A DNA stretch of 61,774 bases, counting the filler. It is 6 parts of 6 records of this genome, joined end to end, with 100 filler letters (N's around TTAATTAATTAA, not from the genome) between each part and the next. Parts side by side here need not be neighbours in the genome. Positions count along the whole stretch, not along the records: positions 54,517 to 61,774 come from SRR31147125_3353; 5 more parts are not named here. The stretch is one strand, 5' to 3'. Position numbers and translations under genes: made by a program. The notes under the pieces are model-generated. The model was not told the origin of the DNA. It saw only the letters and a program-made list of their open reading frames with translations, and searched no databases. Within the stretch, counting starts at the first letter, position 1. Each line of letters begins with the position of its first letter. Below, one piece after another: positions 8,184 through 61,774 of the stretch.

Positions 8184-8283
8184 NNNNNNNNNNNNNNNNN
8201 NNNNNNNNNNNNNNNNNNNNNNNNNNNTTAATTAATTAANNNNNNNNNNNNNNNNNNNNNNNNNNNNNNNNNNNNNNNNNNNN
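8184..8283. other. Artificial contig spacer (N-run, TTAATTAATTAA, N-run)
   Basis: Same 100-nt linker with stops in all frames occurs five times. Confidence 0.97.
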
Positions 8284-54516: not shown

Positions 54517-54575
54517 ACCCAACAAGTGGCTTTAGCCACTTGCTGCTTATAGCACACCAGGCATTCCCAAGCCAT
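54517..54575. repeat. REP-like repeat, copy 1 (palindrome CAAGTGGCT-TT-AGCCACTTG plus tail)
   Basis: 53/59 identical to 56759-56817; sits at the contig edge. Confidence 0.8.
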
Positions 54576-54702
54576 GACAACCTATGAATAACGGTCCTCT
54601 ACCCCAACCAGATCGACAACGACCTCGGACCTGCGGCTGTCATAAAACTCCTGAATATCTCTTTAAAAGTCTCATTTGGGATAGACCGACCTTTTCAATT
54701 TC

Positions 54703-56322
54703 TCACGGCTCAATATTTATTTCGACATATTCGATCGATATTTCCTGTGCACTTTTGTTTTTGAATTGAATTGTCTGAGAATTGGGAAATGTTTTGTTTT
54801 TTTTGACGACATACTCGTACAATACATTCTCGTCACGAGTATAACCATTCGGTACAGGCGAACCATCAGCCCCGGAAACAGCGTATGAGATAGTCTCGCC
54901 CCTGAAAGTGCAGGGACGGGAGTTGAGCGTTAAATCAAGTTTGGCAATTTCTTCTTTTTTATCTTTTTTTATGCCTATAACGATGTTGACGTTTCTGCCT
55001 TTTGGAATAAAACCTGTATCAACTTCCAGTGTTCGCTTTCCGGAAGGTCGAATCTTTATAGGAAGCGGTTTGTATCTGTCATATCCTTTGGGAACCATAT
55101 CCTGGTAAGAGACAATATGCTTTCTCGTACCCGCAAGAGCGGTTTGCAGCGAACCGCAGGTGTTATGGACTTCTCTGTTCCGTCTATTCTGAACGGCAGG
55201 ATCGCCGTAATAGTTGAACACGTAAAATTTGTCCGCACCTGCCGAAAAATACTGAACAGCCAGCGCTCTTGCTCCGTCTGCACCGAGTACTGCATAATCA
55301 TTGTAACGACTGTCATTGTTGAGCGTTTCGATGCCCGCCCAGATTTCCACTCCGTCACAGCGTTTCACCCAGTCGGCTATTGGCATGGCGCTGTCGCAGG
55401 TTTCCCAGCGTGGAGTTACTGTAATGACATCAACCAGTTTTTCTTTTGTCCATGTCAACGCATCAAAGCCGAAAACAAGATTTTGATCGAGATCACGCAT
55501 CAGCCTGACGGCGATTTTAATATCGTGTCCCCATTTTTCTTCTGCTTTTTCTACGATCTTATTGAATTTTCGCATAAAGTCATTCATTATTTTAACTTTG
55601 TCAGGACAGTTTGGATAATCAAAACAATAAATTTCCCGCATAAAATCAAGTTCGACGCCATAGACGTCGTACCGTAGCAGTTGCTCCTGCAAATATACGT
55701 GCATTCGTTCTCTTATTTCCTTAACAGAGTAATCAAAGCAGTAACGATAATATCCATATTCTTTGCCAATGGTCCAACCATTTGTAACAGCTTCGTAGAA
55801 CAGATGACCTCGCAGGAGGGAAGTTGTTTTATCAGGATCATGGCAGTCGTTCATACGGACCGAAATCCATGGATTGATACCGACCTCACGGCATCTGTCG
55901 AACCATTTTGCAAAGATATCAATGCCTCTGTTTTCATACAGATCATATAGCCCGTGATAAAATTCCGTATAATCAACCGCAACGCCGTTCTCAATTTTTT
56001 GCACATTTTTTTCCATGCGTGTTGTCATAATTTCTGTAGGAGTATCAGATGTTTGGGCAAAGACATTAAACATAATGTCGGTAATCTGTGTGTTTGTGTA
56101 TTGATCAACATATTCATTTATATCGCTATCTGTTATTCTTTCTTTTTCTGACAGACGATTAAAAAATCCCCACCAATGAGAATCGTCGGCATTGAGTACA
56201 AGCCCGCCTGCTTTACCGCTCACAGCTTTATTTTTGCTTTCACACCCGACAATCAATGATAATAGCATTATGCCGATAATCATCACCCTTGACAATGTTT
56301 TTAGATTTTTCCTGTGTAACAT
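54703..56322 (-). CDS. Lipoprotein, TIM-barrel glycoside hydrolase-like (GHL10/DUF187-like)
   Basis: Lipobox LIVGC; SVRMND.H, FDYSVKEIR, YDVYGVELDFMR, GADKFYVFNY. Confidence 0.65.
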   Translation of the reverse strand: MLHRKNLKTLSRVMIIGIMLLSLIVGCESKNKAVSGKAGGLVLNADDSHWWGFFNRLSEKERITDSDINEYVDQYTNTQITDIMFNVFAQTSDTPTEIMTTRMEKNVQKIENGVAVDYTEFYHGLYDLYENRGIDIFAKWFDRCREVGINPWISVRMNDCHDPDKTTSLLRGHLFYEAVTNGWTIGKEYGYYRYCFDYSVKEIRERMHVYLQEQLLRYDVYGVELDFMREIYCFDYPNCPDKVKIMNDFMRKFNKIVEKAEEKWGHDIKIAVRLMRDLDQNLVFGFDALTWTKEKLVDVITVTPRWETCDSAMPIADWVKRCDGVEIWAGIETLNNDSRYNDYAVLGADGARALAVQYFSAGADKFYVFNYYGDPAVQNRRNREVHNTCGSLQTALAGTRKHIVSYQDMVPKGYDRYKPLPIKIRPSGKRTLEVDTGFIPKGRNVNIVIGIKKDKKEEIAKLDLTLNSRPCTFRGETISYAVSGADGSPVPNGYTRDENVLYEYVVKKNKTFPNSQTIQFKNKSAQEISIEYVEINIEP

Positions 56323-56601
56323 TTCCTCTGTCCTTTTTTGCTTATTTTCAAATTATCAGATAGGTACTGTTTATCTCATTACTGCATGACCGCCATTACG
56401 ATAGTCACTCATTTTACGTTCCTATTCTTTTTATATATAGTAGAAAATAATAAATTTACAATCCAACTGCAAGTCCTGGACTGAAATTCCATAGTTTTAG
56501 AATAGCGAACTGGAACAATAAAAAAGGAATTCTAATTTGCAGAACGAATCACTTTGGTAAATATCTGTTTACAGCCGGGTGTATAGTATATAAGGTTGGT
56601 T

Positions 56602-56684
56602 CCCCACCATTGCTCGCAAGGGATTTACCTGGAAAAAAGTATGTGGGGCTAGATCCCTTGTGAGCGAAGTTGTTCCCAGGTAAA
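56602..56684. other. Intergenic element with three interleaved inverted repeats (pseudoknot-like)
   Basis: CCCCAC/GTGGGG, GCTCGCAAGGGAT/ATCCCTTGTGAGC, TTTACCTGG/CCAGGTAAA in order 1-2-3-1'-2'-3'. Confidence 0.4.
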
Positions 56685-56758
56685 CCTCATTTGGGACGGA
56701 AGTTCCGGTCCATCCAAGACCCGGGACGCGCAGAGGCCGTTATAGTGACAGCCGTGCA

Positions 56759-56817
56759 ACCTAACAAGTGGCTTTAGCCACTTGCTACTTTTAGCGCACC
56801 AGGCATTCTCAATCCAT
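56759..56817. repeat. REP-like repeat, copy 2
   Basis: Direct repeat of 54517-54575 with 6 mismatches, none inside the palindrome. Confidence 0.8.
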
Positions 56818-56852
56818 ATCAGCAAATGAATACGGGCCACTCCCCATATATC

Positions 56853-56883
56853 GTCCGCCATGGCTTTAGAATCCATGGCGGAC
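56853..56883 (-). terminator. Hairpin directly downstream of the FG-GAP gene
   Basis: GTCCGCCATGG / CCATGGCGGAC 11-bp stem, 9-nt loop, 8 bp from the stop codon. Confidence 0.5.
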
Positions 56884-56891
56884 AATTTTCT

Positions 56892-58682
56892 TTATTTGAT
56901 CAGCGTCATCTTTTGTATTTTAATATACTCTCCTGCTACAATCCGATAGATATACATACCGCTGAGAACAGAAATACCGGCACTGTTTTTCCCATCCCAT
57001 TTCACTTCCTGAAATCCTGCGGTTTGCTGTTCGTTCACCAGTTTTCGCACGTGCTGCCCTAGCATATTATAGATATTCAGACTGACAAAAGTATCCGTTG
57101 GCAGCGCATATCGAATGGTTGTTGTTGGATTAAAAGGATTGGGATAGTTTTGATACAGGTTGAATTCCGTGGGAACACTCTTATCTACCACAAGCGGATC
57201 AGCATTCTTATCCTTCTGCAAAGGTAAAACCATGGTGGGCAATCCAAAGGGGGAACCGGTCACAACTGCCAGAAATTGTCCGCCCGGCTCCACAGTAAAA
57301 CCGGGCTGAAGGGATATGACGTTTCCGGCAGTAAACGTGACATCTCCGCCAGTACTCCCATCTCCTTCGATTCTGAAAAAATGGTCTGATCCGGCAGCAG
57401 TGATAGAGTTTTCAGCACACCAGCTTTCAACCTGGTCAATTTCAACCACCACGTCTGAAAGGACCAGATCCATTGGACAGGCTTCATCATAAATATAAGC
57501 TGAACCGGCATCTAATCCGGCATCATCATCCAGGGGTGCTCCAACCAGATAAGAATTCCCGGATAATGCCACTGCATGTCCATAGGCATCATGTGGACTG
57601 CCATCACTGGCAGTGAGCTTGGGTTTTTCTATCCAGCCTGCTGCGGTGCGCTTAAAGATATAAGCAGAACCGGAACCTGATCCTGATCCCTCGATCTGAG
57701 GCGCTCCTACAATAACCTTATCACCGTCTATTCCAACGGATTTTCCGAAATTGTCGAACGGGGCCCCGTCACTAGGTTTGATTTTGGCTACCTGTATCCA
57801 TTCTCTTCTGGATTGTCGTCTAAATATATAGACCGAACCGGCATTCTCGCCATTATCATCATCTCCATATGCGCCTACAACTACATACTCCTCTGAAATG
57901 GCGACAGACATGCCAAAGTAATCCATGGCCGCTCCATCACTGGCAGTGAGTTTGGCCAATTGAGGTATTCCTTCCTCTCCATCAAAACCAAATATATAAA
58001 CAGAACCGGAATTAGTTCCATTATCATCATCTGTTGGAGCGCCAACAATGTATAATGGCATTCCGCCACCATCGTCCTCCTCAACCACATCAACGCAATA
58101 ACCAAAACCATCTGAATCAGCTCCATCATCGGCTCTGTGGAAATAATGACTTATCCAATCACTCGCTCTCCTGCGAAACAAATATACCTTCCCTTCCTCC
58201 CCAACGGCCAGGTCGCCATCGCCGACAACCGCCCAACCATCTGTTAAGGCTACTGACCATCCAAATCCACGATTACCATCAGCAGGGAGAAGTAAAAAGT
58301 CCGCTTCCCAGGAAACACCGTTAAACCTGTGAACAAGTGCACGGCCCACATCCCCTGTAATGGCCATCTCGCCGGCGATATCCACTGCAGCACTGGAATT
58401 GAGACCAAGGTCAAGATGGGCGGATTCCAGCCAATCTGTTCCATGTCGTTTATAAATATAGGCACCTCCCACAGGACCAGCGTCACCAAGATGATTATCA
58501 AATGGTACCCCAATAATGGCATAATCACCATCAATAGAAACCGAATGACCAAATTCAGCCTCTTCGATTAAAAAACTTCCCTGCAGTTTGGATTCAGTCA
58601 AAACAGCAAAGGCTACCTGTGCTCCACACACCCACAGAAAAAAACAGGCATATAATGTATTTGTTTTCTTATAACCTTTCAT
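56892..58682 (-). CDS. Secreted FG-GAP-repeat beta-propeller protein with C-terminal FlgD-Ig/T9SS-type sorting domain
   Basis: Signal peptide; repeats KLTASDG...D.FG.SVA....VVGA..DD.....GSVYIF; AGNVISLQPGF module; QNYPNPFNP...KMTLIK C-terminus. Confidence 0.85.
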   Translation of the reverse strand: MKGYKKTNTLYACFFLWVCGAQVAFAVLTESKLQGSFLIEEAEFGHSVSIDGDYAIIGVPFDNHLGDAGPVGGAYIYKRHGTDWLESAHLDLGLNSSAAVDIAGEMAITGDVGRALVHRFNGVSWEADFLLLPADGNRGFGWSVALTDGWAVVGDGDLAVGEEGKVYLFRRRASDWISHYFHRADDGADSDGFGYCVDVVEEDDGGGMPLYIVGAPTDDDNGTNSGSVYIFGFDGEEGIPQLAKLTASDGAAMDYFGMSVAISEEYVVVGAYGDDDNGENAGSVYIFRRQSRREWIQVAKIKPSDGAPFDNFGKSVGIDGDKVIVGAPQIEGSGSGSGSAYIFKRTAAGWIEKPKLTASDGSPHDAYGHAVALSGNSYLVGAPLDDDAGLDAGSAYIYDEACPMDLVLSDVVVEIDQVESWCAENSITAAGSDHFFRIEGDGSTGGDVTFTAGNVISLQPGFTVEPGGQFLAVVTGSPFGLPTMVLPLQKDKNADPLVVDKSVPTEFNLYQNYPNPFNPTTTIRYALPTDTFVSLNIYNMLGQHVRKLVNEQQTAGFQEVKWDGKNSAGISVLSGMYIYRIVAGEYIKIQKMTLIK

Positions 58683-58745
58683 GAGAATCTCCTTTCAGTG
58701 AAACGAGAAAAATCCAATATTGCATTTCTTACAGTTCGTAATAGA

Positions 58746-58779
58746 GGCTATTAGTTTTTTATCGTTCGTACTAATAGCC
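58746..58779. terminator. Hairpin between the two secreted-protein genes
   Basis: GGCTATTAGT / ACTAATAGCC 10-bp arms. Confidence 0.45.
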
Positions 58780-58797
58780 CCTGAATTAAGGCAGAAC

Positions 58798-59801
58798 CTA
58801 TTCCAAAAGAGACACTCGTTCCTTTAATAATTTATTTTCTTTCTTTAATTCAATCATATACAGGGTTAGTTCTTCCACCTTTTGCAGCAATTTAACCTGT
58901 ATATCTCCCACATTAACGCCATTTTCCAGAACTTCTTTTTCAGAGGGTATATCCGGCAGGTGCTTGTTTTTTTGAATGTGCTGTTCCACTTTTTCCAGAG
59001 GCATTAACTGGTAATTATCAGCAAATACAAAATCCGCCCAGCCATCCAGGGTTACTTCAACCTCTTTGCAGGTTACTTTTCCGTCCACGGCCAGCCTGGA
59101 TTGAGGATTTATCGTTCCGACACCAACATTACCTTGCTTTATGACAAGACCGACCGTCGCCCACCCAGATGAATAATCCTCTATTTCCAGATATCCATTG
59201 TGATATTCGCCTTCATGATGAATGTAAGCGGAATTACTCCCCGCTTCATTCAAAAGCAGTCCAACAGAGCCTGCATTAGTTGGCGTATTTACTGTGACAT
59301 TTCCGTTCACTTCCAATTTATTCGTTGGATTCGTTGTGCCGATACCAACCTTGCCATTCTTGTCTATTGCCATACCAAAAGATGTTATGCCTGAAGCATA
59401 GTGATCTGAGGTACCAAAGATCAGCTTTGATCCACTACCGTCATGATAAGCTGCAATACGAGCCGTGGGATTGGCAACATCCCTGTAAAGAAAATCAATG
59501 GCTGTATAATACCCGACCTCATAATCACCGCTAAGTGAGAGCATCCCACGTGTGGTACCAGTAAAGTCCGGGATTTGAAGACCTCTTACATGTAATGGTG
59601 TAAGCGGACTTGTTATGCCAGCACCGACACTTCCGGTTGTCCAGGTTTGAGGATTGGAAGCATTATCCTCCCAATTGCCTTGTGCAATAACCAGGTTATT
59701 TACAAAAAATATCGCTGAAATGGCAACCAATAAAGCCAATCCTCTTAATGGCATTCCGCCCTTCATTTGAATTTTTCTGCTGATTTTTTTGATCTTAACA
59801 T
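58798..59801 (-). CDS. Secreted fibre-like protein with G.VGIGT repeats and C-terminal S74-like chaperone/coiled-coil domain
   Basis: Signal peptide; GKVGIGTTNP, GNVGVGTINP; WADFVF..YQLMPL..VE..I..NKHLP.IPS, LLQKVEELTLY. GAGGTG RBS precedes ATG 59801, one base out of frame in an A-run; in-frame ATG at 59766. Confidence 0.8.
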
Positions 59802-59881
59802 GATATCACCTCTCTAATAAATTATTGTTTGGTGAACGGTACATTTTACAATCATTTTATTTTTACGCGCGCTTCAAAAGG

Positions 59882-59913
59882 GTAATAGATTTAGCTGTGA
59901 AAATATTGACAAC
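59882..59913 (-). promoter_or_regulatory. Candidate ECF promoter, copy 1: GTTGTCAATATTT-N11-TCTATTAC
   Basis: Both boxes and the spacing are identical to 60672-60703; points at the fibre gene, 80 bp upstream of ATG 59801. Confidence 0.65.
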
Positions 59914-60117
59914 TTTTTTTATTTTCTATTTTCACAGTACAAAATTGCTTGCTTGACTCTTGTATTAAACCGCTATTACCTCGGAAGGAAATAGACATTG
60001 AAGGAGATTCTGGCAGGATAGTTTGTTGAAAAAGAATAACTTTGAGTGACAAAGTGTTAGAGTTTTTATGTATTTGCCATTTCTAGAGGTAAGATCAACT
60101 TACACCGGATATAATTT

Positions 60118-60723
60118 ATGAAGGATGCACATCAAATCAGTCTGGTACAACGGATACAATCCGGTGATACAACGGCTGAGGAAGAATTGTTTGAGAAATA
60201 TAAGGATCCCATTCGCTGGAAGATCTCCAGGCAAATAATGGCTGATAACGAACAGCGAAAAGATATTGCCAGTGATGTTTATATAGCAATACTGGAAGGA
60301 TTACGGAAAACAAGCTTTCAACCGGAAAAATGGGCTTCTTTGGAAGCGTTTATTTGGGGAATTACCAATAATAAAATTAAAGATTGGTTTAAAAAAAACA
60401 AAGCGGGGATTGAAACAACACCAATTGATTCAACTCCGGATTATGGTGAAGATGATCCTGATGTAATTGGTAATGAGGAACTCTACTCACTTTTAAGATC
60501 GCTTTTAAAAAACTTACCGCCAAAATATAAAAACGTCCTGGATTTGAGGTATTTTGCAGAATTGTCTGTATCAGACATAAGTCAGAAATTAGGTGAGGAA
60601 CCACGCAGAATCAGTGAGCGGATCAATTATGCCTTGAAGCTGATCCGAAAAGAATGTAAAAAAAGAAAAATGTTGTCAATATTTAATGTCATACCTCTAT
60701 TACTATTATGTAGTGTGAATTAG
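60118..60723 (+). CDS. ECF-type RNA polymerase sigma factor
   Basis: Region 2 (GD..AEEELF.KY, DIASDVY, FIWGITNNKIKDWFKK) and region 4 (LPPKY..VL.LRYF.ELS..DIS..LG). Confidence 0.88.
   Translation: MKDAHQISLVQRIQSGDTTAEEELFEKYKDPIRWKISRQIMADNEQRKDIASDVYIAILEGLRKTSFQPEKWASLEAFIWGITNNKIKDWFKKNKAGIETTPIDSTPDYGEDDPDVIGNEELYSLLRSLLKNLPPKYKNVLDLRYFAELSVSDISQKLGEEPRRISERINYALKLIRKECKKRKMLSIFNVIPLLLLCSVN
60672..60703 (+). promoter_or_regulatory. Candidate ECF promoter, copy 2, within the sigma gene 3' end
   Basis: GTTGTCAATATTT-N11-TCTATTAC preceded by an A-tract; points at the anti-sigma gene. Confidence 0.65.
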
Positions 60724-60819
60724 GATTGGATCAAAGGTAAACGGTGTATGCTCAAGCGGCCTTTGAACGGATTATGGGTAGGGAAAAAGCATTTAACGTT
60801 TAAAATTTTCGGTGTCATT

Positions 60820-61497
60820 ATGAATAAAAAGGATCAGAAAAAAATAAATAAAATAGATGATTATTTGTTGGGAAAACTTTCTGCAAAGGAGACTGAAGAG
60901 TTTGAAATATTTCTGTTTGCCAATCCGGAATTGTTGGAAGAGGTAAAAATGAGAGAACAAATGATAAAACTTATCAAAAAAGAAAGAGTAACGCTCGTAT
61001 CAGAATCTCAAGATGCCAGGTTGTCTCCTTCCATCATGGAAACTCTTAAAAACTTTTTTCTACAGCCCCGACCGGGCTGGGTTTATGCCGGTGCTATGGC
61101 CGCTATTTTATTAGTAATCGTTTTTATACCATCGCTTATTAATAATAATATCTCTCCGGCTTTTATGGGTAATGAGTCTATGGAGCCCTATTTAGGGGAA
61201 ACGCACCGGTCGGTAGGGAATTTGAACGTCTCGGTCCAATCACCGGAAATAGGAGAGAAATTTAGCAGAAATATTGTCTTTAAATGGGAGACTCAAAAAG
61301 AAGACCAGACATTTGCTGGAGCATTGGATTTAAAAATTATGAATAATAAAGAAGACATCATGCAAAACCTGCAAGTGAAAGCAAATGATGTTTTAACGAT
61401 AGCCCTGGCACAACCCGGGTTATATTATTGGATCCTTGAATACGAAGGAGAAATGCTCTATTTAGGGAAATTTATTGTATCGGGATCACAAGATTAA
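60820..61497 (+). CDS. Putative single-pass anti-sigma factor (ASD-like N-terminus, TM, extracytoplasmic beta domain)
   Basis: IDDYLLGKLS..E.EEFE..L..NPEL.EEV; TM WVYAGAMAAILLVIVFIPSLI; SP..G...IVFKW...PGLYYW; follows the ECF gene. Confidence 0.7.
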   Translation: MNKKDQKKINKIDDYLLGKLSAKETEEFEIFLFANPELLEEVKMREQMIKLIKKERVTLVSESQDARLSPSIMETLKNFFLQPRPGWVYAGAMAAILLVIVFIPSLINNNISPAFMGNESMEPYLGETHRSVGNLNVSVQSPEIGEKFSRNIVFKWETQKEDQTFAGALDLKIMNNKEDIMQNLQVKANDVLTIALAQPGLYYWILEYEGEMLYLGKFIVSGSQD

Positions 61498-61564
61498 AAG
61501 TAGCTACATTTTAACTCTTTACTCTTACAAAAAATGACCTCGTTTTCCAGGCATTAGAGTGTAT

Positions 61565-61774
61565 TTAACTCCCGATCAACACAAAACTGGCCCATGATTG
61601 CGGCATGGCAGTCGTTTTATTGTTAATCATGAAAAGTTTAGCCCCCTGCAATGCCGCAGAATAACTCTTTCCTGCCAAAATTTGTTTATACAGTTCCACC
61701 ATCATCAGGCTTGTGTGTTCGTCAAGCACACGCCACAGAGAGGCAATTATGTTATTAGCGCCGGAATATAAAAA
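61565..61774 (-). CDS. C-terminal 69 aa of a CHAT-domain (caspase-like, clan CD) protease; absent from the ORF track
   Basis: Manual translation FLYSGANNIIASLWRVLDEHTSLMMVELYKQILAGKSYSAALQGAKLFMINNKTTAMPQSWASFVLIGS* matches the CHAT C-terminal pattern GA..V..SLW.V.D...LM..FY...AL..AKL...P..WA.F.L.G. Confidence 0.85.
   Translation of the reverse strand, partial: FLYSGANNIIASLWRVLDEHTSLMMVELYKQILAGKSYSAALQGAKLFMINNKTTAMPQSWASFVLIGS

Follow-up and report, generated by a model that had tools for sequence, protein, structure and literature searches.

A conserved CHAT protease, anti-sigma and ECF sigma gene trio as a candidate CRISPR-independent envelope switch

At the end of a 61,774-nucleotide stretch of DNA (the window) lies a module of three genes. 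These encode a tetratricopeptide repeat (TPR)-CHAT protease, whose C-terminus falls inside the window, an anti-sigma-like single-pass membrane protein, and a sigma factor of the extracytoplasmic function (ECF) type; two secreted-protein genes are transcribed divergently from the sigma gene (Table 1). The window strings together six contigs, with N spacers between them at 8184, 19845, 36740, 46441 and 54417, and the module's contig occupies 54517-61774 only (~7.3 kb in view). The module is a real, conserved and new variant of regulated anti-sigma proteolysis. It is on balance probably a three-gene envelope switch, in which an exported TPR-CHAT enzyme serves as the site-1 protease of the membrane anti-sigma and so frees the ECF sigma factor.

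Genes of the module

The last 210 nucleotides of the window, which an earlier note on this DNA had read on the minus strand as the end of a CHAT domain, hold an open frame of 69 codons. The reading is borne out by a match to positions 218-289 of the 289-position Pfam CHAT profile PF12770 (E 1.6e-17; 64.4 bits against a cut-off of 24). The gene converges on the anti-sigma gene across a 68-bp gap, and not directly on the sigma gene as had been stated. An 11,079-bp contig that may be the source of this DNA covers the whole of 54517-61774 and continues for 3,818 bases beyond 61774, which leaves room for a CHAT gene of ~1,100 aa. When longer proteins were searched with the fragment, 11 of 17 candidates matched. 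The closest homologues, P0008 and P0009 (1122 and 1130 aa; 88% and 87% identical over the 69-aa piece), begin with a hydrophobic segment and combine an extended TPR array with a CHAT domain in which both the His and the Cys motif occur. A fold search with the AlphaFold model of P0009 (pLDDT 82.5) was led by separase, DdvA and Csx29, with 8rw5/8rot and 8eey among the top matches.

The His-Cys dyad, on which the earlier proposal of a protease depended, is intact in 81 of the 84 CHAT domains of the fetched loci; of the other three, two are cut short and that of L082 is without the His. Of 38 CHATs examined further, 36 are complete, and almost all of these have an N-terminus like a signal peptide; CHATs of the Bacteroidota type and those linked to TPR anti-sigmas carry an extra C-terminal hydrophobic segment. 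Both features were judged by hydropathy and by eye. Because of these N-termini in its relatives, the enzyme most likely acts outside the inner membrane.

Both partners named earlier, an ECF sigma factor and a single-pass anti-sigma, were also recovered. The sigma factor has both the sigma2 and the sigma4 domain and exceeds the TIGR02937 cut-off, and no NCBIfam subfamily reaches its own among the matches listed. The anti-sigma has weak profile matches (E 4.7e-5 and 2.9e-4, far under their cut-offs). Its AlphaFold model (pLDDT 89.6) places helices at residues 3-16, 22-34, 36-64 and 86-107 and a beta-sandwich at 135-220. According to this model, the protein is made of a three-helix N-domain, a transmembrane helix at ~86-107, a linker and a periplasmic immunoglobulin (Ig)-like domain, and it has the ZAS/class I layout of a three-helix anti-sigma domain with one membrane helix. 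Its family comprises 374 clusters at E<=1e-10, from whose best matches an 82-member alignment (A2) was drawn. Pfam zf-HC2 is found in 65 of the 82 members (E<=0.1), and the window copy has lost the HxxxCxxC zinc ligands, with F31, N35 and L38 where H, C and C stand in 61, 63 and 65 of the 82. Foldseek with the anti-sigma model returned generic beta-sandwiches only, an Atlas search with the periplasmic part alone gave no score of 0.8 or above, and a sequence search of solved structures gave TPR proteins only among the best 60 of 160 matches. Kinship with DUF928, suggested by a likeness, was dropped as it found no Pfam support.

Table 1. Features of the module's contig, in window coordinates
Feature	Position	Strand	Remarks
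TPR-CHAT (clan CD) protease, C-terminus, 69 aa	61565-61774	-	remainder beyond window end
Anti-sigma-like single-pass protein, 225 aa	60820-61497	+	stop at 61497
R130-S131, candidate CHAT cut site	61207-61212	+	suggested by conservation and the HetF precedent
Periplasmic Ig domain of anti-sigma	61222-61479	+	like type IX C-terminal sorting domains and the Ig module of sigma-less CHAT neighbours
ECF sigma factor, 201 aa	60118-60723	+	Pfam Sigma70_r2/r4; TIGR02937 78.7 bits vs cut-off 42.9
Promoter-like motif GTTGTCAATATTT-N13-TATTAC	59882-59913	-	points at the two secreted-protein genes
Second motif copy	60672-60703	+	inside sigma 3' end; points at anti-sigma gene
Secreted-protein gene, tail-fibre-like repeats	58798-59766	-	322 aa as read; first predicted target gene
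FG-GAP repeat secreted protein, 596 aa	56892-58682	-	second predicted target gene
Lipoprotein-like protein, 539 aa	54703-56322	-	by eye like a glycoside-hydrolase-type TIM barrel

Conserved linkage and a shared promoter-like motif

The genes of the trio stay together far more often than chance would allow. Matches to the family profile occur in 52 of the 167 genomes of the phylum of genome G001, and the DNA around the matches was annotated with home-made profiles. A CHAT gene lies within 1.5 kb in 25 of the 36 loci of the phylum with an Ig-type anti-sigma; three others end at a contig edge and eight have none. By chance 0.8% would be expected, or 4% if CHATs were everywhere as dense as in the richest genomes, so that the neighbourhood conservation that the earlier note proposed to check is upheld (binomial p ~1e-28 even at 4 CHATs per Mb, relatedness ignored). 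Most of the 25 linked loci share the window's convergent arrangement; of the rest, one is divergent and the others co-directional. These expectations derive from 601 CHAT matches in 796 Mb, the domain being present in 154 of the 167 genomes with up to 13 or more copies per genome. Very long CHAT frames (~2,700-2,880 aa; e.g. G043:C44, G042:C76 and G024:C52) are also widespread in the genomes of the phylum.

The linkage is likewise seen from the side of the protease. A CHAT-centred set comprised 33 genes with frames of ~900-1,300 aa among the matches listed, without the class of 2,700 aa and the majority of truncated genes. In 22 of the 33, a sigma gene lies next to the CHAT together with a gene for a ZAS-membrane anti-sigma, whose outer domain is mostly of the TPR type (assigned by eye, two of the sigmas by eye only). 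Bacteroidota-type loci (L010, L013 twice, and L014) show the same layout together with type IX secretion system (T9SS) cargo. In two cases the homologues closest to the window's anti-sigma and to its CHAT lie on contigs of equal length (8187 and 5416 bp). The earlier statement that the contig carries no CRISPR holds for what is visible, a basis of only 7.3 kb. More widely, a simple exact-repeat test found no CRISPR-like array in 125 stretches (1.57 Mb), and no core cas gene was found among the 139 neighbours scanned (of 171 candidate open reading frames), of which six had scattered PADLOC matches at 1e-10. With no arrays and scattered PADLOC matches, nothing points to defence.

The sigma factor is tied to the divergent secreted-protein genes, as the earlier note had supposed, by a promoter-like motif that stands twice in the module, with 19 identical bases and identical spacing. 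The second copy overlaps the last 17 codons of the sigma gene and faces the anti-sigma gene. In its general form, TCAATATT-N13/14-TA(A/T)TA, the motif was first seen in the DNA between sigmas and divergent genes, and the pattern is post hoc. It recurs at the sigma 3' end in 21 of 21 sigmas of the clade; the later search was confined to the DNA after the sigma region 4 motif in one sigma clade. The codon TCA is used in 18 of 21 sites and ATA in 21 of 21, against backgrounds of 20/220 (9%) and 38/271 (14%), and one site is out of frame. Such rare-codon use and the out-of-frame site indicate that the constraint acts on DNA.

With a leave-one-out matrix, the motif was found in non-coding DNA on the strand that leads away from the sigma at 6 of 18 loci; a copy directed at the sigma was found at 0 of 18, and thus autoregulation of the sigma through this motif was seen in none of the 18 loci. 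A strict pattern gave 14 matches in five genomes against 1 for a control, with two each in G136 and G049, all four of them in the locus. It was derived from these very sites, also post hoc; what is independent is the absence of other matches and the codon test. An unconstrained search upstream of the anti-sigmas had yielded a different motif, which was rejected as the coding motif of sigma region 4, with 0 of 26 recurring upstream.

The predicted target genes probably encode exported proteins. Both products in the window have signal-peptide-like N-termini by eye, which agrees with their earlier description as secreted. The 596-aa protein contains six FG-GAP_2 stretches, a GCX_COOH domain and a FlgD/T9SS-type C-terminal sorting domain (Pfam, NCBIfam), the last with 39.7 bits for TIGR04183 (cut-off 23; type A sorting domain). 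The 322-aa product has no Pfam match and resembles PHROG tail-fibre families (E 3.6e-12 and 3e-8). Elsewhere the output genes vary, among them LVIVD propellers, beta-helices, GEVED, subtilase and S74 chaperone proteins. All five of the related genomes that were tested encode SprA and PorV.

An inverted repeat at 58744-58782, seen by eye between the two secreted-protein genes and absent from the terminator listing, is possibly an element of mRNA stability or processing. The covering contig carries one extra base at each of 59783, 59913 and 56632, all in homopolymer runs; the first would move the ATG of the 322-aa gene to 59801, giving 334 aa with a good ribosome-binding site ahead. Further left, the 539-aa lipoprotein-like product scored above the cut-off of no family in Pfam, NCBIfam or PHROG. 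A strongly structured non-coding element (z -3.9; 0 of 200 shuffles) with no credible Rfam match occupies 56570-56800 (+), between that gene and the point where the FG-GAP gene ends. Part of it, 56720-56786, is also found on another contig with 5 differences. The element seems akin to the non-coding ends of IS110/IS1111 elements, but no transposase goes with it. Sigma-70 promoter-like sites show no excess (9 against a shuffle mean of 13.7), and an Rfam scan gave nothing at gathering level. The six joined contigs apparently come from different organisms, judged from GC and gene content, and genes left of 54517 are not genomic neighbours of the module.

A candidate cut site and the proposed switch

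The linker that follows the membrane helix of the anti-sigma carries a conserved pattern, N-F-x3-P-x-L-E-x7-R-S, with Arg in 70 and Ser in 63 of the 82 members of alignment A2; each of the seven positions ahead of the Arg is conserved in at most 27 of 82. Among the 43 Ig-type rows, 37 have the Arg at the aligned position and one more is off by a column. A precedent comes from HetF, which cuts PatU3 between R117 and S118, R117 being essential (PMC9457339). In L082 (6128-10318) the CHAT His is replaced by Thr, and the adjoining anti-sigma is the sole CHAT-linked Ig-type one in the phylum set without Arg-Ser. Three rows have Gln instead (the near-identical L001 and L011, and L002); the DNA covered there, which is short upstream, contains no CHAT.

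The Arg is also found outside this one architecture. By eye, a hydrophobic-x-Arg-small motif stands just before an unrelated TPR-type outer domain in ~28 CHAT-linked anti-sigmas, and ahead of an Ig module in the secreted CHAT neighbours of the sigma-less loci L092 and L122. Their modules are homologous to the Ig domain of the window's anti-sigma (probability 97.6% for L092 and 95.8% for L122). As the Arg motif precedes unrelated folds beside CHATs, it appears to travel with CHAT genes and not with one fold. Directly upstream of CHATs, with no sigma nearby, L092:6722-7714, L122:6628-7614 and L097:7428-8408 encode secreted or membrane proteins with an Arg-Gly/Ser motif. To judge by their sequences, these three are candidate CHAT substrates other than anti-sigmas.

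The position presumed to be the S1-pocket Asp was taken from separase. Set against the substrate Arg, the first Asp varies among Arg-type loci, where it is often His, and motif-less loci mostly retain both Asp. Complex prediction for P0009 (255-1130) with the periplasmic part of P0003 (106-225) gave 0.00 twice, alignments being unused.

The gene identities, their linkage, the intact dyads of relatives, the conserved Arg-Ser and the motif duplicated at the level of DNA are computational observations, and they are consistent with the following switch. The exported TPR-CHAT would sense a signal through its TPR array and cut the anti-sigma at R130|S131, removing the Ig domain. An RseP-type intramembrane site-2 protease, assumed by analogy, together with cytoplasmic proteases would destroy the remaining stub and release the ECF sigma presumed to be bound to it. 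Freed sigma would then fire the promoter for the divergent, T9SS-sorted surface proteins, an output that would differ between genomes. It would also fire the promoter in its own 3' end, yielding more anti-sigma and resetting the switch.

Several points weigh against this reading. The catalytic His and Cys of this locus and its N-terminus fall beyond 61774, and the dyad is seen in relatives only. The Arg is retained in 7 of 8 anti-sigmas without a CHAT in the fetched DNA; CHATs occur elsewhere in their genomes, but the two are not lost in close step. The Arg motif is missing from a clade of TPR-type anti-sigmas, six of whose members (L078, L081, L083, L105, L108 and L110) have an intact CHAT at 1.2-2.1 kb, divergent and upstream of the sigma; it is missing from L109 and L124 too. 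This clade may use another cut site or mechanism. The R130 linker is modelled with high confidence (pLDDT ~92), and in so ordered a linker the Arg could be structural. Csx29 cleaves after Met/Leu and not Arg (PMC11506125; PMC10028731), which means that Arg specificity is not general among CHATs, and the available text on DdvA describes its self-cleavage as never observed (PMC11506125). The upstream motif is absent from several loci with a divergent gene (L030, L040, L041 and L043), and only 21 of 36 loci have a T9SS-tail gene within 6 kb, in 12 of them on the upstream side and divergent. The related genomes in the linkage counts are not independent samples.

Some of these points would suit a different role, that of a partner. 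The TPR-CHAT would then bind and shield the anti-sigma, or mature or clear secreted cargo, and Arg-Ser would serve in docking or structure. In DdvA, RseP is blocked by the TPR-CHAT, and repression persists in dyad mutants (PMC11506125); the ordered linker in the model and the motif-less anti-sigmas beside intact CHATs fit as well. However, a partner of this kind accounts less readily for the near-universal retention of the dyad and for an Arg-small motif that recurs before unrelated folds. The joint loss of His and Arg in L082, a single case, also argues for catalysis, and a non-proteolytic or cargo-directed role is regarded as unlikely.

A variant of the proteolytic switch concerns what the protease would read. 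The Ig domain compares with cargo sorting domains at an hhalign probability of 93.7%, and 60 of the 82 family members reach E<0.05 against 2 of 82 reversed. With 10-20 sequences per family, the sorting-domain probability is 41-93%, as against <=1.3% for 12 other Ig or beta-sandwich families, most of which held fewer sequences than the sorting-domain set. Pfam CHU_C is found in 12 and Por_Secre_tail in 6 of the 82 members (E<=0.1), and an Atlas cluster with Por_Secre_tail in 34% of its members scored 0.94. The Ig domain could thus be a tethered mimic of a T9SS sorting signal, so that the cut at R130 and cargo expression would be tied to secretion capacity. The reader would be the secretion machine, or the TPR array of the CHAT in competition with unsecreted cargo. 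Export of FlgM gates FliA in an analogous manner. However, the structural matches of the Ig-like fold are generic, with macroglobulin domains (Z 10.1, the best) above T9SS sorting domains (Z 7.5). TPR-type anti-sigmas have the same gene layout and no such domain, most control families were smaller, and the domain may simply be borrowed; a secretion checkpoint is accordingly considered improbable. The same low expectation applies to its wider form, in which a periplasmic, Arg-specific TPR-CHAT family would read a portable tag of Arg-small plus Ig or TPR, the tag's Ig being here the sorting-signal mimic, in a caspase-family secretion checkpoint. If true, the protease would report secretion capacity or unsecreted cargo and release a sigma that makes more cargo and more anti-sigma.

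That sigma/anti-sigma, CHAT and T9SS cargo merely cluster in variable islands with no direct functional link, as the many CHATs per genome, the eight loci without an adjacent one, the insertion sequence-sized insertions and the varied orientations might suggest, is very hard to square with a spacing mostly <100 bp across three orientations, two anti-sigma architectures and at least two phyla, with the binomial test, and with a shared promoter motif that argues for a unit.

Relation to known systems

The earlier note had proposed a stand-alone analogue of Craspase, and in that form this part of it found no support. Type III-E Craspase (Csx29/Csx30/CASP-sigma) does share with the module a TPR-CHAT, a cleavable inhibitor (here a predicted one), an ECF-like sigma and promoter motifs within its own locus (PMC10028731). 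However, it works in the cytoplasm, needs Cas7-11 and target RNA for activation, and has a soluble substrate, which it cleaves between residues 427 and 429 without any one residue being essential (PMC10028731). The protease here is instead predicted to be exported and its substrate to be a membrane protein with a conserved Arg. With a probably exported enzyme and a probably periplasmic cut, regulated intramembrane proteolysis of the DdvA/DdvS kind fits better than a cytoplasmic, RNA-triggered Craspase. Cas7-11, a CRISPR array and Csx30/Csx31 were not found at the locus, of which 7.3 kb of contig is visible. In the intramembrane proteolysis of RseA, the site-1 enzyme DegS is a serine protease; the one here would be a clan CD cysteine protease. 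As proposed for the module, an ECF sigma is set free in the RseA and RsiW systems once a site-1 protease has cut the anti-sigma in its periplasmic domain (PMC10028731; PMC11506125).

CRISPR-independent control of a transcription regulator by a CHAT protease has already been shown by HetF-PatU3-HetZ of Anabaena PCC 7120, where cleavage of PatU3 is modelled to free the regulator (PMC9457339). Both systems have an inhibitor with Arg-Ser, the cut being shown for HetF and predicted here. Unlike the enzyme of the module, HetF is a divisome protein that controls development, and the available text never terms HetZ a sigma or PatU3 an anti-sigma (PMC9457339). The earlier caution that CHAT genes near ECF genes may be on record was justified. 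In ECF54 of Actinobacteria, an ECF sigma is conserved near TPR-CHAT genes and a regulatory role has been suggested (PMC7826278). In the accessible portions of that source, ECF54 is described without an anti-sigma, from Actinobacteria only, and with another predicted promoter (GTATCAG / CTCC). The module is also distinct from the SAVED-CHAT/PCaspase cascade (10.1101/2023.06.23.546230), and PorA and PorXY-SigP follow a different route (PMC7712824). No account was found of a separate exported TPR-CHAT with sigma and anti-sigma in these bacteria, in a literature search outside which subscription papers mostly fell; later ECF group descriptions may mention CHAT.

The closest known relative is DdvA/DdvS of Myxococcus xanthus. 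DdvA is a single-pass ZAS-class anti-sigma fused to a periplasmic TPR-CHAT with His and Cys (PMC11506125). Shared with the module are the ECF sigma, the single-pass ZAS-class anti-sigma, the TPR-CHAT, probably periplasmic here as well, and a proposed cut in the linker after the membrane segment followed by RseP. Unlike in DdvA, the CHAT here is a separate gene on the opposite strand, and a small Ig domain forms the end of the anti-sigma. The module may well be a two-gene counterpart of DdvA/DdvS, and this seems a better description than a counterpart of Craspase. Given the DdvA and HetF precedents, it is less surprising than first thought.

Little is known about the TPR-CHAT family (PMC11506125). 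The locus offers a named candidate substrate, a predicted cut site of a single residue and a two-promoter readout, which makes the role of this large orphan protease family directly testable. As enzyme and substrate are encoded by separate genes, it also permits a test that DdvA has not yet allowed, namely whether a CHAT can act as site-1 protease in an ECF pathway. DdvS switches on a CBASS-CRISPR island (PMC11506125), whereas the predicted targets here are secreted surface proteins and the anti-sigma itself; if the proposed switch is true, the logic of caspase-family protease and anti-sigma would extend to routine surface-protein control, outside phage defence.

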